Notes: generated by a model not told the origin, from the letters alone. DNA of 17,144 nucleotides from Nanopusillaceae archaeon (GCA_049974095.1 JBMFJD010000013.1:1-17144); one strand, 5' to 3'; positions 1 to 16,820 are shown, numbered from the stretch's first letter. Program-made: numbers and translations.

Positions 1-396
1 TTCTATTGTAATATTTTGTGTTAGATTTACTCCATATGTATTTACATAATGCTCTATAAATTTCTCTGTTATTCCTGACATATTTTCATAAACAACCATA
101 TTAATATATGTTACTCTATTTTCATGTATAAACTCTACTACTGTTTCATTTGTTCCATTTTGTGTAACTGTCATCTCTCCATGGAATACCATATTGAAAT
201 TTCCATGTTTTGTCTCTACTGTTATTGTTCCGTTTGTTGTCATAAATGGTAGGTTAACGTATCCATTAGATATTACTAAATTATTGCTTCCTATTTGTAC
301 ATTATAGATTCCTATCAATTGTGCTTGGATTCCTGGTTGAGCAAACACTACTGGCAATGCTAACAATGGTAAAAACAGTGTAATTACCTTTCTCAT
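1..396 (-). CDS. Secreted, N-glycosylatable protein; N-terminal 132 aa only, gene continues past the window start
   Basis: I checked codon by codon that the minus-strand frame is open from the ATG (396-394) to base 1. It is missing from the ORF track because no stop lies in the window. Translation starts MRKVITLFLPLLALPVVFAQPGIQ, a signal-peptide-like n/h/c region. There are six N-x-S/T sequons (NGT x2, NET, NMS, NLT, NIT). The 'AQP' after the hydrophobic core also occurs in the 614-aa glycoprotein. Confidence 0.6.
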   Translation of the reverse strand, partial: MRKVITLFLPLLALPVVFAQPGIQAQLIGIYNVQIGSNNLVISNGYVNLPFMTTNGTITVETKHGNFNMVFHGEMTVTQNGTNETVVEFIHENRVTYINMVVYENMSGITEKFIEHYVNTYGVNLTQNITIE

Positions 397-420
397 AATA
401 TATAATTAACACTTATTACT

Positions 421-453
421 TAAATGTTTATAGTGTAATAAATATAAACATTT
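421..453. promoter_or_regulatory. Perfect 11-bp inverted repeat (aaatgtttata-N10-tataaacattt) in the divergent promoter between the secreted-protein gene and the RHH gene
   Basis: Arms at 422-432 and 443-453 are exact reverse complements. The right arm holds a TATA-like 'tataaa' 27 nt upstream of ATG 470. The left arm read on the minus strand lies 36 nt upstream of ATG 396. The 12-mer taaatgtttata recurs at 12448-12459. Confidence 0.5.
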
Positions 454-469
454 GTTAGATACATATAAT

Positions 470-691
470 ATGGACAAAGAGAAGAAACTCAAAAATGTTA
501 CAACAACTGTACCAATAGAAATATATGAAAAAATTAAGGAAATGAAGATACCAATATCTAGACTTATATTACTAGGATACGAATCAGCCACTAAACAAAA
601 AGAAGAGGACAATCAAATAAGAGACTTACTAATAAGAATATATAACAAATTGTTAGATATTGAAGAATTAATAAAAAAGCCTAAATCTTAA
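470..691 (+). CDS. Ribbon-helix-helix (CopG/Arc/MetJ-like) DNA-binding protein, 73 aa
   Basis: The track ORF 452..691 starts at a TTG. The in-frame ATG at 470 sits 27 nt from the TATA-like box. MDKEKKLKNVTTTVPIEIYEKIKEMKIPISRLILLGYES fits a beta-strand/helix/turn/helix RHH pattern, followed by a coiled-coil-like tail. Confidence 0.55.
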   Translation: MDKEKKLKNVTTTVPIEIYEKIKEMKIPISRLILLGYESATKQKEEDNQIRDLLIRIYNKLLDIEELIKKPKS

Positions 692-1340
692 GAAAGTTAA
701 CATAGTTCCTATTCATATATAGTTTCTTTAAGAAATCATATAATTTTCTAATATTATTAACATCTCTTAGATTATACTCTACTAATTTATTAATATCGCT
801 ATATAAATCTTCTGTAAATTCATATTTTTCATCTAAATTTAACTCTTGAACTATATCTTTTAAAGAATAAAACTTAAAATCTCCTTTCTTTGCATACATA
901 TATATTGCTGTTGGTACAACAAGATCTAATATAGATACTATACTAAAGAATCTGGTCAGTGGTTTTATATTATACTTTCTAGCTTTATATATTAATAATG
1001 GAATATCTAAATACATTATACCATATCCAACGATTTGTCCAATTAACTTATTATATAATATTTTCCCAAGATGCTCTAATATTCTTTTTTCATCATCTAT
1101 ACCTCCATAAACAGTAAATGGTTCTAATTCATATTCATCAGTTACAATATTTCCACTATTTACAACATGGTTAACTGGTAATAACATAGCGACAGAGATT
1201 ATATGTACATTATCAAAACTAAGATTTTCATCAAATTTTGGATATGTTTCTATATCTATGAACCCGACATATCTATTATCATATAATCTAAACAAATTAT
1301 GAAAGTGTATATTCCAAGACCTTATCAACGCCTCATCCAT
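681..1340 (-). CDS. Stand-alone DEDDy-type 3'-5' exonuclease (RNase H-like fold; PolB exonuclease-domain / YprB-like), 219 aa
   Basis: Exo I-like motif YVGFIDIETYP. Exo II-like motif IVGYGIMYLDIPLLIYKARKYNI. Exo III-like motif YNLRDVNNIRKLYDFL (Y-x3-D). The first 19 codons of the track ORF (to 1397) run through the promoter region, so I start at the internal Met (MDEALIRSW, 1340), which is 28 nt from a TATA box. Confidence 0.6.
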   Translation of the reverse strand: MDEALIRSWNIHFHNLFRLYDNRYVGFIDIETYPKFDENLSFDNVHIISVAMLLPVNHVVNSGNIVTDEYELEPFTVYGGIDDEKRILEHLGKILYNKLIGQIVGYGIMYLDIPLLIYKARKYNIKPLTRFFSIVSILDLVVPTAIYMYAKKGDFKFYSLKDIVQELNLDEKYEFTEDLYSDINKLVEYNLRDVNNIRKLYDFLKKLYMNRNYVNFLKI

Positions 1341-1406
1341 TACTATATGATATAACAAATATTTATATGTGTTAAAGAATATAATTATATAAAACAAATA
1401 TTAATA
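1341..1406. promoter_or_regulatory. Divergent promoter region for the exonuclease and membrane-protein genes
   Basis: The element aaatatttatatgtgtt (1357-1373) is 28 nt from minus-strand ATG 1340. A second TATA-like box, ataattatataaaac, lies about 25 nt before plus-strand ATG 1407. Bases 1352-1373 are a perfect 22-bp reverse-complement match to 15740-15761. Confidence 0.5.
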
Positions 1407-2057
1407 ATGAAGGAAGAGACATACATATATATACTATTGTTTCTAGCAACATTACTCTTATTATTAACAGGATATAATCAATTAGCATATAACCCTGCAA
1501 ACGCAGCAATACTAGGATTTATCGTATTTTCAATATCCGTAGGACTATCTTTCCTATTATTATACTATATAGTACTATTTATTATTAGAAAAGAAATGTT
1601 TAATCCAATCTTGTTATTCTTTCCACTATTAGCAGCATTAGGATATTCATTAGCAAAGAAAGCAATAACTGGAGTATCAGTACAGGTATTAGGATCCACT
1701 GGACCACAAGCAGCATTATTACAGATAGTATCATTACTATCAGGATATGGAACTACAATAGAAATATTCGGAGCATGGCTTGGTTTTATAGTAATAGGTG
1801 CTTCTATTGCTTTAATCTTATTTGTATTAATATTAGCATCATATAACCAGATAGAAATGAATAGAGCATTAGAAGTAGCAATATTAGCGGGATTTGGTAT
1901 AGCCGCAGGGTTCGTTACAGGTCATTTAGCAACAACATCATTCTTATATCCTTTCGCAGCAACTGGAGGACCAACAATATATATCCCAGTATTCGGTATA
2001 ACATTAACTATTGGATTAGCTGCATTAGTAGGATCTATATACTTACTTAGACTTTAA
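1407..2057 (+). CDS. Polytopic membrane protein, 216 aa, about 6 predicted TM helices
   Basis: Long ORF with repeated about 20-residue hydrophobic stretches, e.g. IYILLFLATLLLLLTGY, AILGFIVFSISVGLSFLLLYYIVLFII and GFIVIGASIALILFVLILA. Promoter is upstream. Confidence 0.65.
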   Translation: MKEETYIYILLFLATLLLLLTGYNQLAYNPANAAILGFIVFSISVGLSFLLLYYIVLFIIRKEMFNPILLFFPLLAALGYSLAKKAITGVSVQVLGSTGPQAALLQIVSLLSGYGTTIEIFGAWLGFIVIGASIALILFVLILASYNQIEMNRALEVAILAGFGIAAGFVTGHLATTSFLYPFAATGGPTIYIPVFGITLTIGLAALVGSIYLLRL

Positions 2058-3123
2058 CTGCTCTAGGCATTAATACACCTTCAAACATAGATACTATATC
2101 TTCAATACTATATCTTAGGTAATCCCAAGGTAATAATGCCTTCATTATTACTCTATCTACTCCCCTTAGATAATCTATAATGTAGAAGTATGCAGGTAAT
2201 ACATCAACCATCTTTTTATTTTGATCATCTCTTTTCTTTAATTCAGATACATCATCTTTTACTTCAACACCAATTTGTGCTGCAAGAGCAATCATATCCT
2301 TTTCAACAACAGCTGCATCTGTATCACTTAAATCTTCATGAGGAGATATCCTTAATATATATTCCCAATCACCTATAGAACCATAACCAAGAGTCCTTTG
2401 TTCTTCAGAGAACAAATATGATGGAAATACTACATCATACCCAGATACTATTGATAATGATCTCATTACTTTAATATTATATAATACAAATGGTTCAAAT
2501 GTACCTATCTGTAAATCATTATTAACCTCATACATAAAGTTTTCAATATGTACAAATGTACCAAGAATAAATTCAAATGCACCTTTGCCACCAGTACCAA
2601 CATAATCTGTAGAGATATCTATTAATGTCTTAACCATTTTATTATAATAGTCATAAAATTCAGGATAAATTGGTTTTAATATATTCTCACCAAGGCTAAA
2701 TGTATATACTACTCTATTTATCCATCCATGTAAATTAATTAAGAAGGTCATATAATTTTCCCCATTAACAACCATCCTAAGATCTTCACCCATAGTAATA
2801 AATTCGTCCAATAATGATATTGGCAATATATCCGATATTTGCCTATATCTATTGTATAAATCCCTATATTGATTTAAATAAGGTTCAATCCTCTGTCTAG
2901 TAGATTTGCTAGACCTTGAATAAACTGCCACAAATAAACCAAAAAACCTAGGTATATCATTATATCTTATATTTCTAACAGTAGTATTTGGGAATGCTGA
3001 TCTCCATATCTGTGTAGCTTGATTAGAAAATGTTGTAGTCAATCTATTTCTAAATTCTCTTAATAATCCCAATAAACCATCTCTTTTTCTATACTTATCT
3101 ATAAGGTCCCTTGCACTTACCAT
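2047..3123 (-). CDS. Hypothetical protein, 358 aa; no family recognised, possible virion protein
   Basis: Long ORF with balanced composition. It has its own promoter, tttatatgtgtt, 29 nt upstream of the ATG. I found no diagnostic motif. Confidence 0.6.
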   Translation of the reverse strand: MVSARDLIDKYRKRDGLLGLLREFRNRLTTTFSNQATQIWRSAFPNTTVRNIRYNDIPRFFGLFVAVYSRSSKSTRQRIEPYLNQYRDLYNRYRQISDILPISLLDEFITMGEDLRMVVNGENYMTFLINLHGWINRVVYTFSLGENILKPIYPEFYDYYNKMVKTLIDISTDYVGTGGKGAFEFILGTFVHIENFMYEVNNDLQIGTFEPFVLYNIKVMRSLSIVSGYDVVFPSYLFSEEQRTLGYGSIGDWEYILRISPHEDLSDTDAAVVEKDMIALAAQIGVEVKDDVSELKKRDDQNKKMVDVLPAYFYIIDYLRGVDRVIMKALLPWDYLRYSIEDIVSMFEGVLMPRAVKV

Positions 3124-3152
3124 AAAAATAATATGTGATCAACACATATAAA
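3124..3152 (-). promoter_or_regulatory. Promoter of the 358-aa gene with palindrome atatgtg-atcaa-cacatat
   Basis: Inverted repeat at 3131-3149 (7-bp arms, 5-nt spacer). The 13-mer aacacatataaat (3141-3153) is identical to 15740-15752. Read on the minus strand, tttatatgtgtt starts 29 nt before the ATG. Confidence 0.5.
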
Positions 3153-3776
3153 TTATATACCAACAGCAATAATTGTCACAACCAGTAATAATATAACATC
3201 CATTAATAATATTTGCTGATATGTTAATGCAGCTAAGAAGAATCCACCTAAACCCAAGGATAATATAAAAAGTATTATAAACCCGATAACCATAGATAAT
3301 CTACCAATCCTTGGATATAGTGCATATACAAAGTATGTATAGAATAATAATAATACAAAATATGGAATAAGAATATCTGATAAAGGTACTTTATACATTG
3401 TCATATAATACATCAAATCACTATAGAATTTTAGAATTAAAGCAAGATCTGTTGGAGAAGCAAGAGTTGTAGTAACATTTGTATTAACAACTGTAGTATT
3501 ATTTTGCACTATTGTAAATGTATGAGGTACATAAACGGGTAAATAGTAAATAAATACAAGGATATATGCTACTGCCATTACTATTGTAAAAAATCCAAAT
3601 TTAGGAATGATAGAAGATAAAATATTTCTTATTACTAATGAAATTAAGAATAATAATATGACAACAAATATTATAATTAATATTGTAGATATTTCAAAAC
3701 CATGAAATAAAGAAGATATATTTGATACTGTAGAAGAAATAGAGCTATTAGTTACATTAAATATTGTTATATTCAT
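3153..3776 (-). CDS. Polytopic membrane protein, 207 aa, with N-glycosylation sequons
   Basis: Hydrophobic segments include ILIIIFVVILLFLISLVI, FFTIVMAVAYILVFIYYL, YFVLLLFYTYFVYALY and VIGFIILFILSLGLGGFFLAAL. Loops contain NVT, NSS, NIS, NTT and NVT. The start overlaps the upstream stop in an ATGA. Confidence 0.65.
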   Translation of the reverse strand: MNITIFNVTNSSISSTVSNISSLFHGFEISTILIIIFVVILLFLISLVIRNILSSIIPKFGFFTIVMAVAYILVFIYYLPVYVPHTFTIVQNNTTVVNTNVTTTLASPTDLALILKFYSDLMYYMTMYKVPLSDILIPYFVLLLFYTYFVYALYPRIGRLSMVIGFIILFILSLGLGGFFLAALTYQQILLMDVILLLVVTIIAVGI

Positions 3777-5546: not shown

Positions 5547-6685
5547 GCTTGTTGTTGAGGTGGTTGTTGTTGGCCTTGAGGTTGTTGTGGTGCTTGTGGT
5601 ATAGATATATTACCAGATAATATACCTCTAATTTCTGCCAATTGTGCAGACAATTGCTTTAATTTATCTATTACATCATTTTGTACTGCAATAATTTTTT
5701 CTGGAGCTAATGATGTTTCTAATGTTTTAATCCTTGCTGAATATTCATTAATCAGATCTTGTAAGTGCTCAGATTTTGATCTTTCTTGAGCAACATCCAA
5801 TTGCATTGCAGTACTAGATTCTACTGCTGCGAGTGTCGTAGGTAATACAATATTCTTAATATCTCTCATTGTTTTTTCATATAGATTCAATGAAGCAGTA
5901 GATACCGTACTAGCTACAGAGTTATATACCTTCTGTATCTGATTCTGTACAGATATCATCTCAGCATTAACCTTCGTAGATTCTAAATCATTTACTAATC
6001 TATTAATTGTTTGTTGTAATTCACCAATTATCTTTTCTGCTGGTTCACCACCATACATTCTATTCAATAAGTATGCAGGTACCTTTACAAGATTACCAGT
6101 TGGATCCTTATATAATAATAATGTAATTGATTCTGGAAGTTGTGATGCTAAATTTTCTGGATGGAATATTGCTTCCCATAATGAACCAAAGGGAGGTGTC
6201 ATAAATTCTTCTTTACCAGCTTTAATAACAAAGGCAATACCACCATCAGGATGTATAATTATATCTTTTAAATATCCTAACTTTTGTTTTGTTATATCAT
6301 AAACAACAGGAGGTTTTCTGAATGGAAGTAATCCTGCAGATCTAGCCCTCCTTAATAGATCATATAGTGATATTGGTAATTTACCAGTAGCCTTTTCTTC
6401 CTCATATAATTCTTCTAATATCTTACCAAATGCTTGCGACCTTAATTTATTTAACTCCTCTTCTAATTGTTTAGCTTTCTCCTCGCTTAATATTTTTTCC
6501 TGTCTTTCCTTTAATAATTGCTCGGTTAAAATTCTTGTTTGCTCATCTCTTGGTAATTGGGATATATCAATATTAGTAGGTTTAATTACACCAGCTGCTT
6601 TACCAAACTTATACTTAATATAATTAATCATTAAAGAGAAGGTATATTTATAGGCTTCCAATAATGTTTTAAATGGATTCTTCAT
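5543..6685 (-). CDS. Coiled-coil protein, 380 aa, with a Q/P-rich C-terminal tail
   Basis: Heptad-like charged segments (EQLLKERQEKILSEEKAKQLEEELNKLRSQ, and the C-terminal half). Tail is PQAPQQPQGQQQPPQQQA. ATGA overlaps at both ends. Confidence 0.6.
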   Translation of the reverse strand: MKNPFKTLLEAYKYTFSLMINYIKYKFGKAAGVIKPTNIDISQLPRDEQTRILTEQLLKERQEKILSEEKAKQLEEELNKLRSQAFGKILEELYEEEKATGKLPISLYDLLRRARSAGLLPFRKPPVVYDITKQKLGYLKDIIIHPDGGIAFVIKAGKEEFMTPPFGSLWEAIFHPENLASQLPESITLLLYKDPTGNLVKVPAYLLNRMYGGEPAEKIIGELQQTINRLVNDLESTKVNAEMISVQNQIQKVYNSVASTVSTASLNLYEKTMRDIKNIVLPTTLAAVESSTAMQLDVAQERSKSEHLQDLINEYSARIKTLETSLAPEKIIAVQNDVIDKLKQLSAQLAEIRGILSGNISIPQAPQQPQGQQQPPQQQA

Positions 6686-8526
6686 TGTTTTCTAATTTCC
6701 TGAGTAATTTTCTCAGCCAATTCAGTAACACCTTTAGAAGAAGATTTTCTGTATATTATTATTGATATCAATGTAAATGCTAAGATTGCTATAACTATAT
6801 ATAATACATTACCTTCCAACCAAGAGGTAATATTGAATGATGGTTTTGGTGGAGGAATATATGGAGGTGAAATATAAATTGTATATGTAGTAGTATTAAT
6901 TAGAGGTCCTGAGATATCCAATTCATATTGTCCAATTGTAAAGTTATATGTTAATGATCCAGTACCAGTTGCTTCCTGTACTCTAGTACCATTAATATAT
7001 TCATATAATATTAATTGCGCCTGATCTACAAAATCACCTTGTGCTTGTATTGTATATTCTCCAGGTGTAGTTGGTAAATTACTTACAGTTATTGGTGTAT
7101 AACCAAGAAGGGTAATGTTTGTTAATGAATAACCTGGTGCGGATATTGTAATCATATTTTGACCTTCTTGTATGGGGAATGTTGTAGAATATGTAGGTAT
7201 ACCATTATAATAGAATGTTGCTCCAAGTACAGGTTGCATTGAATTACAATCATAAACACTCTGTATAGTTACATTAGTTCCATCTGGATAATATATGTTT
7301 CCATTATATTGCTGTCCTTTTGGAGATATTATATAACATAAAGGTCTTGGAGGTGCTTGAACACATGAGAAGAATGGTACATAATTTTGCGCATACGAGT
7401 ATATACAATATGTCTGTCCAGGAATAACAGGTATAGGATATTGATATGATAATGCTTGACCATTTGGTCCTATTACTAATATATTTGCATTTGGTATATA
7501 GTATGTGGATCCATTATAATATACATATGCGCCTTGAATAAATAGATAACCAGAAGATATTGTATAATTAACCTGTAATGGTAATTGAACAGTAGCGGGA
7601 ATTGGACTTGTTTGTTGTGTAGTAGATTGCGTATTAGTAATATTTTGTCCTAATGAACTTATAACATATAAATCAATACTGGTTTGAGCATTATAAACTT
7701 TATTATCAGCTTCTCCAGTATATACTATGACTATATTATATTGTCCTAGAGGCATTCCGGCAGTATTAATATATAAAGTCATATATGCATACTGTCCCGG
7801 TGCCAATGTTCCAACCCCTCCTTGAATATAAGCATTTTGAGGTGGTAATCCTTGAATAAGTACATTTAATATTGTTAAATTATCATTACCTGTATTTATA
7901 ATACCAATTGGATACTCATATGTTTGATTTGTATATAAGGTTAGTGATGCAAATGAATATAATGGAGTTATAGGATTAGATACATTTGTTGTTGGTGGTG
8001 TAGACACAGTAGTGGTAGTAGTAACATTAGAGGTTGGAGTTGTAGTAGTAACATTCTGTAAAGTAGTTGTAGTACCAACATTAAATACAAAACCATAAGT
8101 AATATTATAAGTAGTTAATGTGGTACCATTTGTATTATTGACATTTGGTACAAAAAAGAAACTTATCATACCAGATCCTGATTGCGCAACCGACAATTGT
8201 AATGGTGTAATACCAGTAAGTATAGAAATATTAGCAGAATAAGATTGCCCAGATGCTAAATATGAACCTGCAGAATATAATGCTGTAGGAGAACCAGAAT
8301 AGGTTATTGTAACATTATATGGAACCTCTGTATTATATATATTCAGATATACGAACGGAGAACTAGGGTTAAGATTACACATATATGAAGCCGGAGAAGA
8401 TTGGACACAGTTAGGTACTGTTATTGCTGGTTGAGCTTTAACAGAAAAAATAAATATTAGGGACATTAACAATACACTGATATACCTTCTGACCCTATCA
8501 CGAATTGTCTTTACTTCACCATTCAT
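6682..8526 (-). CDS. Membrane-anchored, heavily N-glycosylatable surface or adhesin-like protein, about 614 aa: signal peptide, Thr-rich linker, CARDB/Ig-like beta-rich regions, C-terminal TM anchor
   Basis: The track ORF begins at a TTG (8583). ATGs lie at 8541 and 8526. The 8526 ATG is about 28 nt from the TATA-like ttataaatataaat. N-terminus is MNGEVKTIRDRVRRYISVLLMSLIFIFSVKAQP. Linker is NVTTTTPTSNVTTTTTVSTPPTTNVS. There are dozens of N-x-S/T sequons. LAPGQYAYMTLYINTAGMPLGQYNIVIVYTGE resembles a CARDB-type beta-sandwich. C-terminal anchor is LYIVIAILAFTLISIIIYRK. Confidence 0.7.
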   Translation of the reverse strand: MNGEVKTIRDRVRRYISVLLMSLIFIFSVKAQPAITVPNCVQSSPASYMCNLNPSSPFVYLNIYNTEVPYNVTITYSGSPTALYSAGSYLASGQSYSANISILTGITPLQLSVAQSGSGMISFFFVPNVNNTNGTTLTTYNITYGFVFNVGTTTTLQNVTTTTPTSNVTTTTTVSTPPTTNVSNPITPLYSFASLTLYTNQTYEYPIGIINTGNDNLTILNVLIQGLPPQNAYIQGGVGTLAPGQYAYMTLYINTAGMPLGQYNIVIVYTGEADNKVYNAQTSIDLYVISSLGQNITNTQSTTQQTSPIPATVQLPLQVNYTISSGYLFIQGAYVYYNGSTYYIPNANILVIGPNGQALSYQYPIPVIPGQTYCIYSYAQNYVPFFSCVQAPPRPLCYIISPKGQQYNGNIYYPDGTNVTIQSVYDCNSMQPVLGATFYYNGIPTYSTTFPIQEGQNMITISAPGYSLTNITLLGYTPITVSNLPTTPGEYTIQAQGDFVDQAQLILYEYINGTRVQEATGTGSLTYNFTIGQYELDISGPLINTTTYTIYISPPYIPPPKPSFNITSWLEGNVLYIVIAILAFTLISIIIYRKSSSKGVTELAEKITQEIRKQ

Positions 8527-8541
8527 AAAATATGAATACAT

Positions 8542-8575
8542 ATTTATATTTATAAGTGTTGCTAAATGTATCAAA
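8542..8575 (-). promoter_or_regulatory. Probable promoter of the glycoprotein operon
   Basis: The minus strand reads acacttataaatataaat directly upstream of the two candidate ATGs. Spacing favours a leaderless start at 8526. Confidence 0.4.
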
Positions 8576-8583
8576 GCGTACAA

Positions 8584-8937: not shown

Positions 8938-9558
8938 TCATCTTTTATTATTTACAGGTCTTAATTTACATACTCCATAACCTAAATTCCTACCTCTTCC
9001 TATTTTTATTGTTATTTCCTCATTTAAATCCGACTGTGCTTCAATTAAGAATCTACTACCATCAGTAATCGCTTCTAATATTACTGGTGATTTTGTTTTA
9101 CTATTATAGTTAGCATATAACATTAAGGATATATTTTCAGGTTTTACATCTGTTAATATAAAATCTGCACCACCATCATATTTCACTGCATATCTTAATG
9201 GTCTAATAAAGTAAGACCACCAGTCAATCCATGATAAATAATCCTCATAAGTTTTAATTTTACCAATATCTGCATGTTTTCTCGGAAATAAATAATCAAT
9301 TTTTATGTATCCATCGTCAAGTAATGGTTTCTCTAATTCCTTCTTTTTAATCTTATAAACCTCTTTCAGTGCTGAATCCCTGTCCATTTTCTCAAATAGA
9401 TCCTTATACTTTGCTATATCTTCCTCCGTTAGTACAATTTTATGCTCTAATATCTTAAAATCTTTCATATCCATTTTTGCAAATACCCTAAAAGAAAATA
9501 CTTCCTTATTCAATCCACCCAATATCGGAGTTATAACTTCTAGCTCGTATGATGCCAT
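8938..9558 (-). CDS. RAMP / Cas6-like protein, 206 aa (putative RNA-binding protein or endoribonuclease)
   Basis: The C-terminal glycine-rich loop IKIGRGRNLGYGVCKL fits the RAMP G-x-G-x3-G-x-G loop near the C-terminus (compare the Cas6e-type GIGxxKxxGxGLL). The N-terminal YELEVITPILGG resembles the beta1 'TPxxxGG' of Cmr1/Cas7-type RAMPs. It is the last gene of the operon. Confidence 0.4.
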   Translation of the reverse strand: MASYELEVITPILGGLNKEVFSFRVFAKMDMKDFKILEHKIVLTEEDIAKYKDLFEKMDRDSALKEVYKIKKKELEKPLLDDGYIKIDYLFPRKHADIGKIKTYEDYLSWIDWWSYFIRPLRYAVKYDGGADFILTDVKPENISLMLYANYNSKTKSPVILEAITDGSRFLIEAQSDLNEEITIKIGRGRNLGYGVCKLRPVNNKR

Positions 9559-9563
9559 ACATA

Positions 9564-9836
9564 CTAATATGTGTAAATACTCTTAAAAACCTTAAGGTTT
9601 GGTATTATTATATATAATTTTCCATCTACTTCAGATACAATACCCAATGATTTTAATATAGATATAACATCCTTATCAAATGAGTATGAATCTAGAAAGT
9701 ATATTACACCATCAAGAGTACCATAATTATCTATAAGCTTTTTAATAATATCCTGTATTTTTGGGTCTGTTATAAGATCAAGTAGTTTATATATATCTAT
9801 ATTATCTAAAATGAATAATCTATAACCTATAGACAT
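9564..9836 (-). CDS. Small winged-helix-like protein, 90 aa
   Basis: ISILKSLGIVSEVDGKLYIIIP resembles a recognition helix plus beta-wing. It overlaps the upstream gene by 17 nt and ends 5 nt before the next start. Confidence 0.4.
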   Translation of the reverse strand: MSIGYRLFILDNIDIYKLLDLITDPKIQDIIKKLIDNYGTLDGVIYFLDSYSFDKDVISILKSLGIVSEVDGKLYIIIPNLKVFKSIYTY

Positions 9837-11601
9837 CGTTTTCTAATTTAATTTCTTTTCTTGCAACCATTTCATTCAATATTCTGTCTAATACTAGTAA
9901 TACATTAGTTTCTCTCTTAATAATTATTTGCCTATTTTCTACCATATTTTGTATTATTTGTCTCAGTTCATTTAACCTTTTTGGACCAGTAGATAAAATA
10001 TTCTTTATAACACCTTCTAGATCTTTTTGTGATGATATAATATACTGTATCTTAATATTACAATATTTATCATAAAATACACCGAGGTATGATTTATAGA
10101 AATCTAATACATTCTTTGCCTGTAGTGTAGTATTCATAAAAGATAATAAATGCATTAATGAAAAAAATGCAATAGCATATTTTACTTCATCAATAGTAAT
10201 AGTAGTCCTATTATTTAATACAGCAAATATCTTAGCCATTTTACTTATTGTCTCCTTTCTTTCATATAAGAACTCATAGAATTGTGGATAAAATCTATTT
10301 ATATTTTTAGCCTCATCCTCAAATAACTTATCGAAATTACCAGTAATATTATAACTATTCAACATATGCTTAACAAATTGGATATAATCATACATATTAT
10401 ACCCAGATACCTGTAATGGTATATCTACAGCAATTGGTACTAAGAAATCTACTTTCTCAACATAGTATTGGAACATCCTTAACAAAGTATTATATAATGA
10501 TGTAAAGGACGAGAAATCTGTATACTTAGAAGATTTATATACTAATATTATATTTTTACCCTCATATAATGCTTTGTCTATCTTTATCTTTAATTCCTTA
10601 GTAGTCTGTTGTACATTATTAATTATCATATTATCATCAATAATAGACGGACTACTAGTAACCCTATAATGTAATATTGAAGCTATTTTATCAATATATA
10701 TTTGCTTGGCATCAATATACATTACAGAAAAGTTATAGAATAAATTGAATACTACAGGTAATGTGGTTAATACATCATCAATATCTAAATATGCTAAAAG
10801 ATGTAATAATTTCTCATCAGGTCTTAACTTTAATATATTTAACATATTATACATATTATACTCATAGTCGTCAATAATGTACAAACCTATCGCAAGATAA
10901 GCTTTCGTAACAACCTTCCTATGTATAATTTCCTGAGCAAGCTCCCTATCCATTTCAATAGCAATATATTTATATCTTAGCTTACTCTCCTTAGCAAACC
11001 TGTATAATTCTTCAGGTATTATTAAAGCAATATTACCCAATCTAGTATCTTCCCCATATATCTTTACCCCATTAAGAACAACCCTAGTAAATCCTACAAT
11101 AGATGATACATTACCCTTAAATGAACATACAGGACATGATAATGGAGGATATTTCTTTAATGATAATATATGATGACCTCTCTCACATGTAGATCTATTA
11201 ATGTATATCGATTCCATTACCACCCTATTTGGCTTAACATTTAATTCTAAAAGGTTATATACAGATTTTAATCTTTGATATAATGGATTCTTTAAATCTC
11301 TAATAATTAGGAATACCATAGGTATATTAGATAATATCTTTATTTTCTCATTTTCTAATGAGAATAATGCATATGATGAATTTTCAAGATAAGTTGTTAA
11401 ATCATTACCAGATAGCAAAAAGTTATATACATCATATAGTGGAGAATATTTATTATCTGGTTCATCACCCATGATATAATAATATTGATCTAGATCAATG
11501 AATAAAGAATTATTATATAATAAACCTACATGTATATCTGGTGGAGTATTTACAATAAAATTATATGGGTTCTTATTAGTAATTATTTTAGTAGGAAGCA
11601 T
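9820..11601 (-). CDS. Large Zn-ribbon protein, 593 aa. Either an MCM-like N-terminal domain with a degenerate ATPase and C-terminal wH, or an AEP primase-like N-terminus. Unresolved.
   Basis: C139/H143-H144/C156/C159 (STCERGHHILSLKKYPPLSCPVCSFKG) parallels the MCM Zn module of the neighbouring MCM (HEKCGYEF...ICPKCGESG) and is roughly collinear with it. There is no intact Walker A or B; the closest is IILVYKSSKYT. It has a lid-like helix ISKMAKIFAVLNNRTTITIDEVKYAIAFF and a wH-like C-terminus ...MVARKEIKLENDVYRL. Alternatively, LFIDLD (hhhDhD) and ERGHHIL resemble AEP primase motifs I and II. Confidence 0.35.
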   Translation of the reverse strand: MLPTKIITNKNPYNFIVNTPPDIHVGLLYNNSLFIDLDQYYYIMGDEPDNKYSPLYDVYNFLLSGNDLTTYLENSSYALFSLENEKIKILSNIPMVFLIIRDLKNPLYQRLKSVYNLLELNVKPNRVVMESIYINRSTCERGHHILSLKKYPPLSCPVCSFKGNVSSIVGFTRVVLNGVKIYGEDTRLGNIALIIPEELYRFAKESKLRYKYIAIEMDRELAQEIIHRKVVTKAYLAIGLYIIDDYEYNMYNMLNILKLRPDEKLLHLLAYLDIDDVLTTLPVVFNLFYNFSVMYIDAKQIYIDKIASILHYRVTSSPSIIDDNMIINNVQQTTKELKIKIDKALYEGKNIILVYKSSKYTDFSSFTSLYNTLLRMFQYYVEKVDFLVPIAVDIPLQVSGYNMYDYIQFVKHMLNSYNITGNFDKLFEDEAKNINRFYPQFYEFLYERKETISKMAKIFAVLNNRTTITIDEVKYAIAFFSLMHLLSFMNTTLQAKNVLDFYKSYLGVFYDKYCNIKIQYIISSQKDLEGVIKNILSTGPKRLNELRQIIQNMVENRQIIIKRETNVLLVLDRILNEMVARKEIKLENDVYRL

Positions 11602-12430
11602 ATCCTAATAATGGATTGGCAACACTAATAAAATATTTTAAGGCCTCTTCAATATACTGTTCCTTAACAATATTATCTCCATAACTTCTAGCAATTGCCT
11701 TCGCTAACCTTATTATTGTATTTACCCTCCTACCAGTAAAATATAAACCAGTATATGATATATTTAGATTAACCCTAATATTTTCTGGTACCTGTACATT
11801 AATACTTCTAACCGTGTTCAAATAATTCAATAGCTCATTATTATCAAAAGTATATGTCTCTTCAGTATGAGAACCAAACGATCTATTTAATAAAAATATT
11901 AGATCAAGTCTATCAATAACAGTACCTGGTAAATCAAGTTCATCTAAATAGTTCTTACTCTCAAAGAAATCCTTTCTTGGGTTAGCTGCAGCAAGTACTG
12001 CAAGATTAACATCATAAGATACATCAACCTTTGCCTTTTCAATAGTTACTTTAAGATCCTCTAATAACTCATTTAATGAATTTTTGAATGTCTTATTAGC
12101 CTTATCAAGCTCATCTATACATAATATATTATTTACTTTAGATATTGTACCATGTACAAACCCTACTTTTCTATCAGGATATCCATATAATCCAGGTATT
12201 GTAGTAGTTTGTGCATTAACATATAGAGAACCAGGTATATTACTAACAAATTTTAGGATATGAGTCTTACCAGTACCTGGTATCCCGTATAGTAATATAT
12301 GTATCGAATCTCTGAAGAATTGACTCTTACCAATAGATATTAATTGGTAAGCAATACCTAACCTTATCTTAGCATAAATATTACCCTTGAGTGAAGGGAA
12401 CAAACCATTAATAAGATCCTGGAAATCCAT
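11588..12430 (-). CDS. MCM-family AAA+ ATPase core without the N-terminal (Zn/OB) or C-terminal wH domains, 280 aa
   Basis: Walker A LLYGIPGTGKTHIL. Walker B ILCIDELDKA (MCM IDEFDK type). VTIEKAKVDVSYDVNLAVLAAANP matches KAGI...AAANP (pre-sensor-1 hairpin and sensor 1). VIDRLDLIFLL is the SRFDLIF arginine-finger region. TGRRVNTIIRLAKAIARS is the sensor 2 / lid. The protein starts where the MCM ATPase domain normally starts (FPSLKGNIYAKIRLGIAYQL). It overlaps the downstream gene by 14 nt. Confidence 0.8.
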   Translation of the reverse strand: MDFQDLINGLFPSLKGNIYAKIRLGIAYQLISIGKSQFFRDSIHILLYGIPGTGKTHILKFVSNIPGSLYVNAQTTTIPGLYGYPDRKVGFVHGTISKVNNILCIDELDKANKTFKNSLNELLEDLKVTIEKAKVDVSYDVNLAVLAAANPRKDFFESKNYLDELDLPGTVIDRLDLIFLLNRSFGSHTEETYTFDNNELLNYLNTVRSINVQVPENIRVNLNISYTGLYFTGRRVNTIIRLAKAIARSYGDNIVKEQYIEEALKYFISVANPLLGYASY

Positions 12431-12498
12431 ACTTTATATATTGTAAATAAATGTTTATATTTGTTCAAACATATAAATGTTTGTAATAATAATATCTT
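12431..12498. promoter_or_regulatory. Divergent promoter / operator region between the mini-MCM operon and the 68-aa gene
   Basis: taaatgtttata (12448-12459) is identical to 421-432. On the minus strand it gives tataaacattt 29 nt before ATG 12430. The palindrome caaacat-ataa-atgtttg (12466-12483) includes a tataaa 27 nt before ATG 12499. Confidence 0.5.
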
Positions 12499-12705
12499 AT
12501 GGATCAAATAGAAGCAAAATGTAGGGCAGTAAGAGATTTTTATGCACAATTTCTTGGAGAGGAAAATGTATCATATAAAGTTGAAAATGGCTTATGTTTA
12601 ATAGATATAAAGTTGCCACCAGACCAATTACAAAGAGAATACACAACTGTATTAGCTTATCTCGGTCCACAGCAACAACAAACACAGCAACAGCTACAAC
12701 TATAG
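12499..12705 (+). CDS. Small hypothetical protein, 68 aa, with a Q-rich C-terminal tail
   Basis: The ATG is well spaced from the TATA box. Composition is balanced (MDQIEAKCRAVRDFYAQFLGEENVSYKVENGLCLIDIKLPPDQLQREY...) and ends GPQQQQTQQQLQL. A T-rich tract follows. Confidence 0.5.
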   Translation: MDQIEAKCRAVRDFYAQFLGEENVSYKVENGLCLIDIKLPPDQLQREYTTVLAYLGPQQQQTQQQLQL

Positions 12706-12724
12706 GTTTTCTTATTTTTAGTTT
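12706..12724 (+). terminator. Possible T-rich terminator after the 68-aa gene
   Basis: gttttcttatttttagttt lies directly after the stop codon. Confidence 0.3.
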
Positions 12725-12729
12725 AACAC

Positions 12730-12769
12730 ATATGAATAAGTATATAAAGGTTTTTTACAATATGAATAA
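12730..12769 (+). promoter_or_regulatory. MCM promoter: TATA box flanked by a direct repeat
   Basis: tatataaa at 12741-12748 is about 25 nt upstream of ATG 12770. atatgaataa occurs at 12730-12739 and 12760-12769, bracketing it. Confidence 0.5.
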
Positions 12770-14902
12770 ATGGTAGTAGGATATGAAGAAATTATTAATA
12801 AAATAGATCTAAAATCTCTTTTTTTAAAATATATAGCAGTACAGAAGAAGGTAGATAGAGAGATGATGTTTTTACAATATATGGATGAAACCCCAGTAAA
12901 AGAAGCATTATTATTATATGAGAAAATAAAGGATGATCTATCAGATTCTATTAAAAAGAATAAATCTGTTGTTGCCATTCCTGCTTCAAAGCTTTTTGAA
13001 TCGTTTGGAGTATTAGCTTTAGATATTTTAAATGATGCAGAAACATATGAATTGTTCACAAAATTTATGGAATATATATTAGACTGGAGATTTCACTCTG
13101 CATATCCAATAAATGTTACTATTGCAAAATTACCAGCAGAAGAGGAGGAAGATCCAAAAAGAAGAGCATTTACAAAGGAGATAAGATTAATAAATAAGAG
13201 CATGTTAAACAGGGTAATACAAATACCTGCAATAGTAGTAGCAACTACAGAGAATTATATTCATGTAGCATCAATAAAATATAGACATGAGAAATGTGGG
13301 TATGAATTTGAAGTACCACAAGGACCATTTACAAAAGAAAAACCAAAGATATGTCCAAAATGTGGGGAATCTGGTAAATTCATAGAGGTAGAATATAAAA
13401 AGACAAATGGTAAGAAGTTATTATTATCAGATTTACCAGAAAACCTGAAGGTAGGAAAACCTGGAGTAATAATGGCCCTCATGTATAGAGATTATTTATT
13501 TGATCCATACAATGAAGTAAATGTATATCCAGGTATGCGTGCATATATAGTTGGTATAGTAAAATCTGCAAAAAAGGAAAAAGAGAAGGAAGAACAATTA
13601 TACATAGATGTATTATGGATAGAACCATTAGAAGAAAAGAAGATTGAATTAACAGATAAGGATAAAGAACAATTAAAAAACATGTTACCAGAGGGTGATG
13701 TTATAAAGTTCATTGCAGATACTATGTTCCCAAATATTTATGGTACACAATACTCATTTATTAAACAAGCAATATTATTAGCAATAGTATCTGGATATGA
13801 TAAGATAGATGATAACATAAAGAAATATTATAAACTAGACAGGTTAAATATACATGTGTTAATGGTAGGTGGACCTGGTACTGGTAAATCAACAATATTA
13901 GAAAGAGTAGTAAGGTTAGTACCAAGATCTTCATACATTACATTAACAACCGCAACAACAACAGGTTTAACAGCATCTGTTAGAAAAGATCCTGTATTGG
14001 GAGATTGGGTATTAGAAGTTGGTGCCATACCTCTAGTAGCTAATGGTGTTGCATGTATAGATGAGATCGATAAAATACCAAAACAAGAAATAACAAAACT
14101 ACATGAAGTAATGGAACAGCAAACAATTACAATACATAAAGCAAACATTCATACATTAATAGAATCTCCAGTATCAATTATAGCAGCAGCAAATCCAAAG
14201 TTTGGAAAATGGGATATACATCAAGACATATTAGCACAAATAGATCTACCACAAACAATATTAGACAGATTTGATCTAATATTTGCAATAATACCAGAAC
14301 AACAAGAAATGAAGGTAATTGGTAAAGAGATAATTAGAAATGTAAATATTAGTGAAACACCAACAATCGATGATCAAACATTAACAAAATATATAGTATA
14401 TGCTAGGAGTATCATACCTGAATGGACAGATCCTGCAATAGGAGAACTAGATAAATTATATGAAGAATTATCTAGTAAACCTGGTATATATATTACAACA
14501 AGACAGATAAATACAATAGTAAGGTTGGCAATTGCATCAGCAAAGGCAAGGTTATCAAAATATATAACAGAGTGGGATGTACAAAAAGCAAAAGAGATAT
14601 ATCTTTCATCCTTATATAGTATAGGAGTAGATCCATTTACACACCAGGTAGATATAACAATAAAAGAAACTGGATTTTCAAGATCAGAAGCAACATTAGC
14701 ACAATTAGTAGTAGATTCTATAAAAGAATTAGAAAAAGATTTTCCAAATGGTGTACCAATATCAGAAATTGTAAATTCGATAAAGAATAAAAATGTTGAT
14801 GTAGATGAAGAATCTGTAAAATATATAATAGAAAAATTGAAGAAGGTTGGTGAAGTATATGAATCTGGAGAAAATAAAGTAAAAAGAATAGTAAAAAGCT
14901 AA
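12770..14902 (+). CDS. mcm: Full-length archaeal-type MCM replicative helicase, 710 aa
   Basis: N-terminal domain with Zn module HEKCGYEF...KICPKCGESG. Walker A VLMVGGPGTGKST. Walker B VACIDEIDK. ITIHKANIHTLIESPVSIIAAANP. Arginine finger LDRFDLIFAI. Sensor 2 / lid ITTRQINTIVRLAIASAKA. C-terminal wH-like tail. Length is typical for archaeal MCM and gives no sign of an intein. Confidence 0.92.
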   Translation: MVVGYEEIINKIDLKSLFLKYIAVQKKVDREMMFLQYMDETPVKEALLLYEKIKDDLSDSIKKNKSVVAIPASKLFESFGVLALDILNDAETYELFTKFMEYILDWRFHSAYPINVTIAKLPAEEEEDPKRRAFTKEIRLINKSMLNRVIQIPAIVVATTENYIHVASIKYRHEKCGYEFEVPQGPFTKEKPKICPKCGESGKFIEVEYKKTNGKKLLLSDLPENLKVGKPGVIMALMYRDYLFDPYNEVNVYPGMRAYIVGIVKSAKKEKEKEEQLYIDVLWIEPLEEKKIELTDKDKEQLKNMLPEGDVIKFIADTMFPNIYGTQYSFIKQAILLAIVSGYDKIDDNIKKYYKLDRLNIHVLMVGGPGTGKSTILERVVRLVPRSSYITLTTATTTGLTASVRKDPVLGDWVLEVGAIPLVANGVACIDEIDKIPKQEITKLHEVMEQQTITIHKANIHTLIESPVSIIAAANPKFGKWDIHQDILAQIDLPQTILDRFDLIFAIIPEQQEMKVIGKEIIRNVNISETPTIDDQTLTKYIVYARSIIPEWTDPAIGELDKLYEELSSKPGIYITTRQINTIVRLAIASAKARLSKYITEWDVQKAKEIYLSSLYSIGVDPFTHQVDITIKETGFSRSEATLAQLVVDSIKELEKDFPNGVPISEIVNSIKNKNVDVDEESVKYIIEKLKKVGEVYESGENKVKRIVKS

Positions 14903-15158: not shown

Positions 15159-15722
15159 TTATAAATCTAATTTTTTAGCCCTTACATATACTAAGCCCCA
15201 TGCTATAATATTTGATATTAATCCACCAAAGAAGAATATAAATTCTATTATTGCAAATGCTAAAACTGCTTCTAAACTTTCACCTAATGAAACACTAGCA
15301 AATGGAATCATGAGTATAATAGCTATTAATAATAATACTACTGTTAACTTCAATAATTTTGCTGGTGTCTTTAAATTACCATTAATTCTCTCTAATATAC
15401 CTGCCAAGAATGGATAACCTATTATAGGTATGAAGAAAGATAGTATTGATATTGCTGGTGATCCTACCTTCTTTACTTTATTATAATCACGAATTGCTAC
15501 ATACAATAAAACATAACCGTATAAAGCTAGTATAAATGCTACTGTAAATCCAAAATATAACACCATTAATAAATTAACAATCATTGGACTTGCTGTACTA
15601 GTCATATCAAAACTCGATGAAGCAAGTGACATAAATGCTATTCCATACATTATTGCTAGAAACACATACATTGCTAGCGTCGAATAAAAAATATATGTTG
15701 CTGCATCACTTAACGATCCCAT
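15159..15722 (-). CDS. Polytopic membrane protein, 187 aa, about 5-6 TM helices
   Basis: Hydrophobic helices include YIFYSTLAMYVFLAIMYGIAFMSLA, MIVNLLMVLYFGFTVAFILALYGYVLLYVAI and LTVVLLLIAIILMIPFA. The promoter tttatatgtgtt is 29 nt upstream. Confidence 0.65.
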   Translation of the reverse strand: MGSLSDAATYIFYSTLAMYVFLAIMYGIAFMSLASSSFDMTSTASPMIVNLLMVLYFGFTVAFILALYGYVLLYVAIRDYNKVKKVGSPAISILSFFIPIIGYPFLAGILERINGNLKTPAKLLKLTVVLLLIAIILMIPFASVSLGESLEAVLAFAIIEFIFFFGGLISNIIAWGLVYVRAKKLDL

Positions 15723-15761
15723 TCATAATATATGTAAAAAACACATATAAATATTTGTTAT
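15723..15761 (-). promoter_or_regulatory. Promoter of the 187-aa membrane-protein gene; carries the 22-bp element shared with 1352-1373
   Basis: 15740-15761 is the exact reverse complement of 1352-1373. There is also a palindrome tatatgt-N7-acatata (15729-15749). Confidence 0.5.
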
Positions 15762-16123: not shown

Positions 16124-16151
16124 ATATAGATATTATACAATTATCTTTATA

Positions 16152-16256
16152 AATTGTTATCACTGTTTACGAGGAATATACCCAACTACCATGCTTCCCA
16201 AAAAATATATATAATATATATTTTTTTACGCGTAAGGTTTTGTGTAGAACACATAT
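16152..16256 (+). repeat. About 105-bp repeat unit R1 (box1 - A/T spacer - box2)
   Basis: aattgttatcactgtttacgaggaatatacc...cttccc / aaaaaatatatataatatatattttttt / acgcgtaaggttttgtgtagaacacatatt. Aligns by eye with R2 at roughly three-quarters identity. Confidence 0.8.
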
Positions 16257-16274
16257 TATTATAGTAAAATATAG

Positions 16275-16380
16275 AATTGTTATTACTCTTTACGGGTATT
16301 ATACCTTCCATTGAGTTTCCCAAAGGAAATATATATATATTATTTTTTTACGCATGGGGTTTTGTGTAGAATATGTGTTC
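16275..16380 (+). repeat. About 105-bp repeat unit R2, direct copy of R1 about 123 bp downstream
   Basis: aattgttattactctttacgggtattatacc...gtttccc / aaaggaaatatatatatattattttttt / acgcatggggttttgtgtagaatatgtgtt. Confidence 0.8.
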
Positions 16381-16716
16381 TATTATATATTATTATTATA
16401 TAAATATTATAATATAATATAATAAAAATATTTATATATTATTATATAACTATTTATTACTAATAAATAGTAAAAAAATCTCTTTTAATATATATTTTTA
16501 ATAAATATTAATATGTGTTTATTATTATATTATATAATATTATTTATTATTATAACAAATATTTAACAAATATTAAAAAGGTATATATAAAGGAAATTTT
16601 TTACTATTTATTAGTAATAAATAATAACAATATTATTTATAAATATTATATAATATATTATTAATAATTATTATTTTTTAATAATAATTTTTTATATAAT
16701 AATAAATAATAATAAT
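16381..16716. promoter_or_regulatory. About 336-bp extreme A+T core; candidate DNA-unwinding element of a replication origin
   Basis: My hand count gives about 16 G/C in 336 nt, or about 95% A+T. No ORF. It is bracketed by R2 and inverted R3. Confidence 0.55.
16451..16623. repeat. Perfect 27-bp inverted repeat inside the A+T core (arms 16451-16477 and 16597-16623, 119-bp spacer)
   Basis: tatttattactaataaatagtaaaaaa versus ttttttactatttattagtaataaata, which are exact reverse complements. Each arm also holds its own 9-bp palindrome, tatttatta-N-taataaata. Confidence 0.85.
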
Positions 16717-16820
16717 AACATGTGTTTAACACAACAGGGTCTTCGTGAAAAATTATATAATATATATTTTTTTTCGGAGACCCCCTGGTAGGTCATATTC
16801 CTGGTAATAAGTAGTAACAT
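16717..16820 (-). repeat. About 105-bp repeat unit R3, inverted copy of R1/R2
   Basis: Its reverse complement reads atgttactacttattaccaggaatatgacctaccagggggtctcc / gaaaaaaaatatatattatataattttt / cacgaagaccctgttgtgttaaacacatgtt. It is collinear with R1 at roughly 65-80% identity per segment by eye. Confidence 0.7.

Follow-up and report, generated by a model that had tools for sequence, protein, structure and literature searches.

Three MCM-derived genes lie together on a 17,144-nucleotide (nt) contig of a tiny hot-spring archaeon of the Nanopusillaceae (Nanobdellota; GCA_049974095.1 JBMFJD010000013.1:1-17144; hereafter the window), and we favour, with modest confidence, the view that they form a replication module in which a two-protein MCM, made up of a motor and a scaffold, would work beside a canonical MCM. 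This view draws on sequence comparisons together with structure models. In archaea and eukaryotes MCM serves as the motor of the replicative helicase, and the division of work among its collar, its AAA+ tier and its ATP sites is still studied by means of engineered truncations and mutants. The three genes encode a stand-alone MCM AAA+ core plus lid of 280 amino acids (aa), which we call the mini-MCM (11588..12430, minus strand), a 593-aa partner with a predicted MCM fold (9820..11601, minus strand; accession MGC9133554.1), and a full-length MCM of 710 aa (12770..14902, plus strand). An initial annotation of the window had described the 280-aa and 710-aa open reading frames (ORFs), and both are present at these positions and carry the MCM signature motifs that it quoted.

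The mini-MCM matched the MCM P-loop family of Pfam (PF00493; 1.4e-29, 103.2 bits with a cut-off of 23.3) over profile positions 16-207 of 224, with a sub-threshold MCM_lid match at residues 226-265, and MCM chains accounted for 60 of the 60 PDB sequence matches listed. Its motifs comprise a Walker A sequence GIPGTGKT (K55), a Walker B sequence CIDELDK (D106/E107), a PS1 hairpin EKAKV, sensor 1 AAANP (N150), an arginine finger DRLDLIF (R174) and sensor 2 FTGRR (R234/R235). Residues 8-269 paired with residues 317-613 of the 710-aa MCM (31% identity, E 2e-28). Because the alignment is confined to that segment, the mini-MCM consists of the AAA+ core and lid alone, and the N-terminal A/Zn/OB domain and the C-terminal winged helix of canonical MCM are missing, as had been proposed. 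The NCBIfam model of full-length MCM scored 86.6 bits on the mini-MCM against a cut-off of 940, and the h2i and EXT hairpins are approximately 6 and 8 residues shorter than those of the 710-aa protein.

An upstream exon or start that would add an N-terminal domain had been named as a possible objection. An in-frame stop lies one codon 5' of the mini-MCM ATG at 12430, and across the family such a stop lies 1-8 codons 5' of the start, so an N-terminal extension is ruled out. The second objection, that the protein might belong with MoxR, Mg-chelatase or ComM-YifB, was likewise rejected. The next-best Pfam match, Mg_chelatase, scored 38.7 bits over residues 93-152 only, nested within the MCM match, and AAA_3 (29.6 bits) and YifB (27.4 bits, cut-off 362) were both weaker than the MCM match and lay inside it. 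In phmmer searches the best matches from outside the family were the neighbouring full-length MCMs of the window lineage, at 94-96 bits; other MCMs scored 40-87 bits (59 for the neighbours in loci L001 and L002), and MoxR-like proteins 37-39. With 103 bits for MCM against 39 for Mg_chelatase and 37-39 for MoxR-like proteins, the mini-MCM is, on its sequence, a true MCM AAA+ protein that stands alone and is conserved.

A homologue search returned eight clusters of proteins of 278-286 aa, 55-94% identical to the mini-MCM, one of them labelled 'Nanopusillaceae archaeon', and a cluster look-up added a further member, P0054. We aligned nine sequences representing 90%-identity clusters (alignment A6; 278-286 aa). 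Every member begins with MDF(Q/D)DL, and K55, D106/E107, N150, R174 and R234/R235 are invariant in 9/9. The PS1 hairpin lysine is regarded as essential for MCM translocation; in three members, P0004, P0007 and P0008, it is replaced by L, A or I (VTISLGG, VTISAAG and VTISIAG, in the columns around residues 128-136 of the window protein). Across three lineages, identity between lineages was 53-58% for the mini-MCM, 30-39% for the 593-aa partner and 28-34% for the full-length MCM, and by this comparison no other gene of the module is as constrained as that of the mini-MCM.

In a neighbour-joining tree of AAA+ cores the mini-MCM family was monophyletic in 96% of bootstraps and sister to the adjacent full-length MCMs in no more than 2%. 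That low figure, together with the 31% identity, bears out the earlier statement that the two did not arise by a recent duplication. The mini-MCM family split off with the outgroup in 42% of bootstraps, so that the tree fits a deep position either basal within MCM or just outside. No family member was found among GTDB species representatives, which yielded only an unrelated, 25%-identical locus from Spirochaetia, or among the IMG/VR contigs scanned. L008 encodes a 657-aa protein at 25% identity. A metagenome scan contributed nothing beyond short contigs.

The 710-aa protein has the complete architecture, with an N-terminal domain, OB/Zn region, AAA+ core, lid and winged helix. Pfam matches to MCM_OB (1.3e-8), MCM (7.3e-66) and MCM_lid (8.3e-16) were all above their cut-offs and a Zn ribbon was also found, with MCM_WH_arc below its cut-off (1.8e-4, 21.9 bits versus 26.1). 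The zinc motif reads H172-x3-C176...C195-x2-C198, and the catalytic motifs are Walker B CIDEIDK, PS1 HKANI, sensor 1 AAANP, arginine finger DRFDLIF and sensor 2 TTRQ. The NCBIfam MCM model gave 389 bits against the cut-off of 940, in keeping with a diverged sequence, and the protein is deposited as MGC9133557.1, annotated 'ATP-binding protein [Nanopusillaceae archaeon]'. Judged by these matches, it is a full-length MCM of canonical type that evolves fast.

The mini-MCM and the 593-aa partner are encoded by overlapping genes. In the window the overlap is 14 nt (11588..11601, minus strand) and spans the sequence from the partner ATG to the stop of the mini-MCM gene (ATGCTTCCTACTAA). In 6/6 loci the partner ATG overlaps the 3' end of the mini-MCM gene, by 7, 14 or 23 nt and in differing frames, and the two genes co-occur in every locus long enough to show both. 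This arrangement suggests translational coupling. An overlap in every locus, in frames that differ, speaks for two separate, co-translated products and against an assembly artefact or a frameshift fusion; programmed frameshifting that would join the two proteins was considered and found unlikely, since the length and frame of the overlap vary among lineages.

Sequence searches with the partner were almost empty. There was no Pfam, NCBIfam or PADLOC match, no PDB sequence match even when a family profile was used, and none among phage records, and the sole PHROG match was sub-threshold (phrog_3022, 'DNA primase', E 0.0019, residues 445-566). An exhaustive HMMER scan of 1.84 billion representative proteins gave 4 matches, all from the partner's own family, and word-indexed homologue searches, run with the single sequence and with an alignment including the L001 and L002 proteins, gave 3 near-identical proteins only. 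Within the family approximately 100 alignment columns are invariant, among them a zinc motif, C139-x3-H143...C156-x2-C159, which is present in all members and is predicted to bind metal.

Structure models of the partner pointed to MCM. An AlphaFold2 model (mean pLDDT 58) contains a low-confidence N-terminal subdomain (residues 1-95), a beta-rich, Zn/OB-like region (~96-245), a degenerate alpha/beta region without Walker A or B (~250-420) that includes a poorly modelled beta-alpha-beta segment (290-420), lid helices (~423-515) and, at the C-terminus, a winged helix (~520-593), with residues 420-593 well modelled. The best 50 Foldseek matches in the PDB were all MCM2-7 or archaeal MCM chains (E 2.7e-7 to 2.8e-5, probability ~1), aligned over 509-775 columns. 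A replicate model of P0052, a family member of 611 aa with 31% identity, again gave MCM chains for all of its best 50 matches, with E values from 2.4e-10 and 242 matches at or below 1e-3; alignments across both models covered 470-775 columns. Mean pLDDT was 57-58 and TM-scores were 0.15-0.32 for the two models, the low TM-scores being due to poor domain packing, so that the evidence lies in local, co-linear similarity of fold. In BFVD the sole significant match of the partner model was a 560-aa viral protein.

Profile comparisons gave the same register. Using hhalign against full-length MCMs, the lid helix was aligned with a probability of 26%, and at relaxed settings the partner was co-linear with the 710-aa MCM over 513 columns, with the Zn knuckles superposed. 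The Walker A sequence GPGTGKST fell opposite LPVVFNLF in the partner, the Walker B sequence CIDEIDK opposite IINNVQQ, the arginine-finger strand DRFDLIF opposite EKVDFLV, and the sensor 2 and lid sequence TTRQINTIVRLA opposite ERKETISKMAKIF. The mini-MCM family aligned to the partner in this same register (probability 25%, E 7.6e-4, 98 columns). These comparisons are individually weak, with probabilities of 9-26%, and their registers are mutually consistent. GK[ST] occurs nowhere along the whole length of any of the 8 partner family members, nor is there a conserved hhhhD[DE] in them. Lacking Walker A and B, the partner is very likely ATPase-dead; sensor 1 has been lost too. At the sensor-2 position all members hold a basic pair (R/K448 and K449, the latter invariant), K, R or Y occupies the arginine-finger position, and in the weak hhalign register a conserved K or R sits at the PS1 lysine spot (ILVYKSS / IIIYRGD / VMLFKYS). 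From models and alignments together we conclude, with good confidence, that the partner derives from MCM, keeps its full architecture and has no ATPase site.

The initial annotation had suggested that the mini-MCM borrows its missing functions from the gene downstream. The computational results support this more strongly than had been guessed and make the partner the likely supplier of the missing domains, as it is MCM-shaped, carries no ATPase motifs and is always encoded in overlap with the mini-MCM. In the scheme we propose, the two proteins would be made together from their overlapping genes and assemble as a two-polypeptide MCM. An oligomer of mini-MCM would hydrolyse ATP and move DNA, and the dead MCM would supply in trans the N-terminal Zn/OB collar for DNA binding and oligomerisation as well as the winged-helix domain. 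More speculatively, the dead MCM might also offer its conserved basic pair at the sensor-2 position to the ATP site of a neighbouring mini-MCM. The result would be a second helicase or helicase-accessory complex that works beside the canonical MCM to replicate a probable mobile or viral element. The most specific form of this proposal, a naturally bipartite MCM in which catalytic AAA+ subunits and ATPase-dead MCM-fold subunits share one ring or two-tier machine, with the collar and perhaps R/K448-K449 donated by the dead subunit, is tentative and, in our view, less likely than not.

Several observations count against the scheme. In the mini-MCM itself neither the arginine finger nor sensor 2 varies, which implies contact with another active P-loop, its own or that of the full-length MCM; a simple ring in which it alternates with the dead partner is therefore not a sufficient explanation. 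Three members have another residue in place of the PS1 lysine and the EXT and h2i hairpins are shortened, so the DNA contacts of the motor may be atypical. Gene overlap indicates co-expression and not complex formation. The alpha/beta region at ~250-420 is the worst-modelled part of both low-confidence AlphaFold2 models, and the assignment of a degenerate AAA+ domain there consequently depends on position, on the beta-alpha-beta pattern and on the hhalign matches of 9-26%. For the element itself, a chromosomal location is the alternative to a mobile one.

The invariant trans residues of the mini-MCM would also fit a protein that mainly serves the full-length MCM, inserting into or capping its ring as a regulatory or poisoning subunit or forming mixed AAA+ tiers, with the role of the 593-aa protein unrelated. 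Both the arginine finger and sensor 2 require a neighbour with an active P-loop, a full-length MCM gene lies within 3.3 kb of the mini-MCM gene in every locus that extends far enough, and co-located full-length MCMs are the best non-family matches of the mini-MCM (94-96 bits versus 87 or less). However, the coupling that is invariant is to the 593-aa gene, while the distance and orientation of the MCM gene vary. The full-length MCM also changes at about double the rate of the mini-MCM, an odd pattern for obligate ring partners, and the collar at the N-terminus, which drives the assembly of MCM rings, is missing from the mini-MCM. We consider this explanation unlikely.

We would give about the same low weight to the idea that the pair acts as an initiator or helicase loader in the manner of Orc1/Cdc6, with the dead MCM binding an origin through its Zn/OB and winged-helix domains and the mini-MCM serving as an ATP switch that melts DNA or loads MCM. 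No Orc1/Cdc6, primase or Rep protein was recognisable among the proteins of the window, an AT-rich, repeat-flanked region at 16150-16790 is a possible origin, and the C-terminal third of the partner, which ends in the winged helix, is basic (pI 9.2). Against such a role, the mini-MCM of the window lineage retains the helicase-type PS1 lysine and a remnant of h2i, and none of the other loci fetched preserves the sequence of the origin candidate.

Membership of an anti-virus defence system or another non-replicative AAA+ system, of the BrxL, IetA or MoxR type, is much less probable still. Faint BrxL_ATPase Pfam marks on homologues, weak PADLOC matches to DolB and IetA (21-26 bits) and a type IIG methyltransferase/Eco57I gene on one related contig hint in that direction, but such matches reflect generic AAA+ similarity and are four-fold weaker than the match to MCM (103 bits). 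PADLOC returned nothing for the partner and only generic AAA+ matches of 13-26 bits for the mini-MCM, and a canonical MCM is always in the module; we rejected this assignment. Finally, the notion that both genes are functionless, decaying remnants of duplicated MCM genes, as the partner's loss of all ATPase motifs and the mini-MCM's loss of both flanking domains might suggest, is effectively refuted by the conservation pattern, since both genes are intact in three lineages diverged to 30-58% identity, with the catalytic residues of the mini-MCM and ~100 partner columns invariant and with length, start and overlap conserved.

Each ingredient of the proposed two-protein MCM has a precedent among MCMs that are borne on mobile elements, inactive or fragmentary, or whose motors carry foreign N-termini. 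The isolated AAA+ domain of Sulfolobus solfataricus MCM (SsoMCM) is a minimal helicase whose activity increases when the N-terminal half is provided in trans (Barry et al. 2007, PMC1807962), and as a separate polypeptide that half raises processivity and substrate selection, which is the arrangement suggested here. The SsoMCM split was engineered, whereas here it is natural; the scaffold also retains a lid, a winged helix and a degenerate alpha/beta region, and it has diverged so far that its sequence is no longer recognisable. In MCM, sensor 2 and the arginine finger work in trans, across the interfaces between subunits (PMC4619765). Methanopyrus kandleri mkaMCM2 (PDB 3F8T) is a naturally inactive MCM homologue without the EXT hairpin (PMC2933578, PMC3972481), and in its lack of catalysis it resembles the 593-aa partner. 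It is recognisable as MCM by sequence, however, and is not reported as paired with a motor-only MCM; the 593-aa family, by contrast, has no sequence-detectable MCM homology and is always gene-overlapped with a mini-MCM whose active site is intact.

Haloarchaeal 'outlier' MCMs of 312-315 aa consist of the N-terminal domain only, and extra MCM copies in archaea have been attributed to mobile elements (PMC3972481). The outliers are likewise stand-alone pieces of MCM encoded as separate archaeal genes, but they represent the reciprocal fragment, and no coupling to an AAA+-only gene is described for them. In BcMCM of a Bacillus cereus prophage an MCM AAA+ module follows a non-MCM N-terminus (PMC2715239), and RepA-MCM of the Sulfolobus plasmid pTAU4 (Greve 2005) and Cch of SCCmec (Mir-Sanchis 2016) are cited in PMC6972569. 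All three share with the mini-MCM an MCM motor without the canonical N-terminal domain in the replication module of a mobile element, and differ from it in that the motor is fused to a primase- or Rep-like N-terminus, whereas here it is a free 280-aa protein.

Multi-MCM complexes of Methanococcales are mentioned in PMC12680538. They and eukaryotic Mcm2-7 resemble the present module in having several diverged paralogues with unequal ATP-site contributions within one replication system; all of their subunits are full-length with ATPase motifs, and none is known to be motor-only or a dead scaffold. In small archaeal viruses and plasmids, MCM is often the only protein of replication that can be recognised (Krupovic et al. 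2010, via PMC6972569; bioRxiv 10.1101/2025.02.15.638363), and these MCMs are fast-evolving and were acquired by capture from hosts (PMC6972569, bioRxiv 10.1101/2025.02.15.638363). They are single full-length genes and not a trio of canonical, motor-only and dead-scaffold MCMs. In the literature, with subscription journals sparsely covered, we found no account of an obligate pairing, beside a canonical MCM, between a free motor-only MCM and one that is cryptic and ATPase-dead.

The genes downstream of the pair follow a conserved order, in which the mini-MCM gene and the ~600-aa partner gene are followed by genes for proteins of ~90-100 aa and ~200-213 aa, then by one for a ~606-633-aa protein and further genes. 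The first of these encodes 90 aa in the window (9564..9836, minus strand), overlaps the 3' end of the partner gene by 17 nt and is 90-100 aa long in every locus. It gave a weak PADLOC match to the C-terminal DUF2398 of JetB (7.7e-5); inspected by eye, it is a probable small winged-helix protein, and it could be a further subunit of the complex. The next gene encodes 206 aa (8938..9558, minus strand) and its product, which had no family match, is 199-213 aa in every locus with 38-47% identity between lineages.

The initial annotation had placed the divergent MCM genes around one 340-bp control region, a description that did not hold. The spacer between the two MCM ATGs is 339 nt and contains a conserved gene for a 68-aa protein (12499..12705, plus strand; MDQIEAKCRAVRDFYAQFLGEENVSYKVENGLCLIDIKLPPDQLQREYTTVLAYLGPQQQQTQQQLQL), co-directional with the full-length MCM gene and with a Q-rich tail. 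This ORF is kept as protein in L005, L006, L010 (62 aa) and L012, with mostly conservative substitutions and a variable Q-rich tail, had no family match, and is missing in L001 and L002, whose MCM genes are separated by 85-86 bp. In L021 (4654-10858; JGI 3300041912) a 714-aa full-length MCM is encoded co-directionally 3.2 kb upstream of the mini-MCM, with three ORFs (305, 340 and 318 aa) in between. As the layouts of L001/L002 and L021 differ, the divergent MCM arrangement is lineage-specific. At the edge of the L021 contig lies a gene for a thermopsin-family protease (6-1787).

Within the spacer, the ~68 nt between the mini-MCM ATG and the 68-aa ORF (12431..12498) form an AT-rich region that looks like back-to-back promoters. 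On the minus strand CAAATATAAACATTT lies ~25-34 nt upstream of the mini-MCM ATG, and on the plus strand CAAACATATAAATGTTT lies ~22-29 nt upstream of the ATG of the 68-aa ORF; from their sequence and spacing we infer that these boxes are archaeal TATA boxes for leaderless or short-leader transcripts. The full-length MCM gene has a separate AT-rich stretch upstream. A sigma-70 promoter scan carries no meaning for archaeal DNA. Non-coding RNA in the spacer or in the AT-rich region was rejected, there being no Rfam match and no tRNA.

A motif, AACACATATAAAT / AAACATATAAATGTTT, was also seen directly upstream of several start codons of the window. Motifs of this type occur at 3120-3153, 15719-15752, 1352-1373, 15740-15761, 12434-12489 and 413-468, and those at 1352-1373 and 15740-15761 make up a 22-nt perfect inverted pair. 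The motif is probably a promoter (BRE/TATA) element shared across the contig.

The origin candidate referred to above is an AT-rich non-coding stretch (16150-16790, GC ~0.22) approximately 1.3 kb beyond the full-length MCM gene. It contains direct repeats at 16195-16249 and 16317-16371, spaced by 122 nt and each ending in GGTTTTGTGTAGAA, a 103-nt imperfect inverted repeat (16427-16529 / 16545-16647), and a palindrome, GGGTCTTCG...CGGAGACCC, around an AT core at ~16737-16787. These features make it a candidate replication origin. The 14-nt motif of its repeats was absent from all other loci fetched.

The window has ~28% G+C, and none of its ORFs other than the MCM genes had a Pfam match above the curated cut-off. 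Accessions and locus tags place two more mini-MCM modules in the same metagenome-assembled genome (MAG), on contigs of 59,894 bp (MGC9133248.1/249.1) and 35,048 bp (MGC9133435.1), and the three paralogous modules differ by ~40-45% in protein sequence. Three modules in one very small genome were unexpected and suggest integrated or co-binned mobile elements. The three diverged copies in a small-genome bin, the fast-evolving ORFan neighbours and the membrane- or glycoprotein-like genes indicate that the locus probably belongs to a mobile or viral element.

Two other genes of the window can be given putative roles. The 633-aa protein (6682-8583, minus strand; 606-621 aa in related loci) has an N-terminal hydrophobic segment, long T/S/N-rich tracts with numerous N-x-T/S sites, and a membrane anchor at the C-terminus, VLYIVIAILAFTLISIIIY, and the GC skew of its gene is opposite to that of the neighbours; it looks like a surface or envelope glycoprotein. 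A 238-aa ORF (681-1397, minus strand) has DEDD-exonuclease-like motifs (GFIDIETYP ... YNLRDV) and a weak RNase_H_2 match (E 0.045), and may encode a 3'-5' exonuclease among the replication functions. On a related contig, L002 (JGI 3300005801), positions 1-3343 carry type IIG-like N6-methyltransferase/Eco57I and radical-SAM genes, ~4.5-8 kb from the MCM module; by these gene assignments the elements adjoin or carry restriction-modification functions.

The locus points to a family of elements of ~15-20 kb or longer that are candidate nanoarchaeal viruses or plasmids. As a 600-aa protein of MCM fold can be invisible to sequence methods, MCM-derived genes in archaeal mobile elements may be under-counted. 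If the proposed module is real, nature has itself performed the dissection of MCM, setting a constrained motor-only MCM, a full-architecture MCM stripped of catalysis and a canonical MCM in one module. Should the mini-MCM and its partner assemble, they would provide a minimal thermostable system in which to ask which functions need their domains in cis, whether the trans residues of a dead subunit support hydrolysis, and how heteromeric MCM rings arise by duplication and subfunctionalisation. Were the bipartite form true, it would represent, within a nanoarchaeal mobile element, an extreme subfunctionalisation of MCM paralogues that parallels the specialisation of Mcm2-7 in a prokaryote and is kept in three paralogous copies by one MAG.

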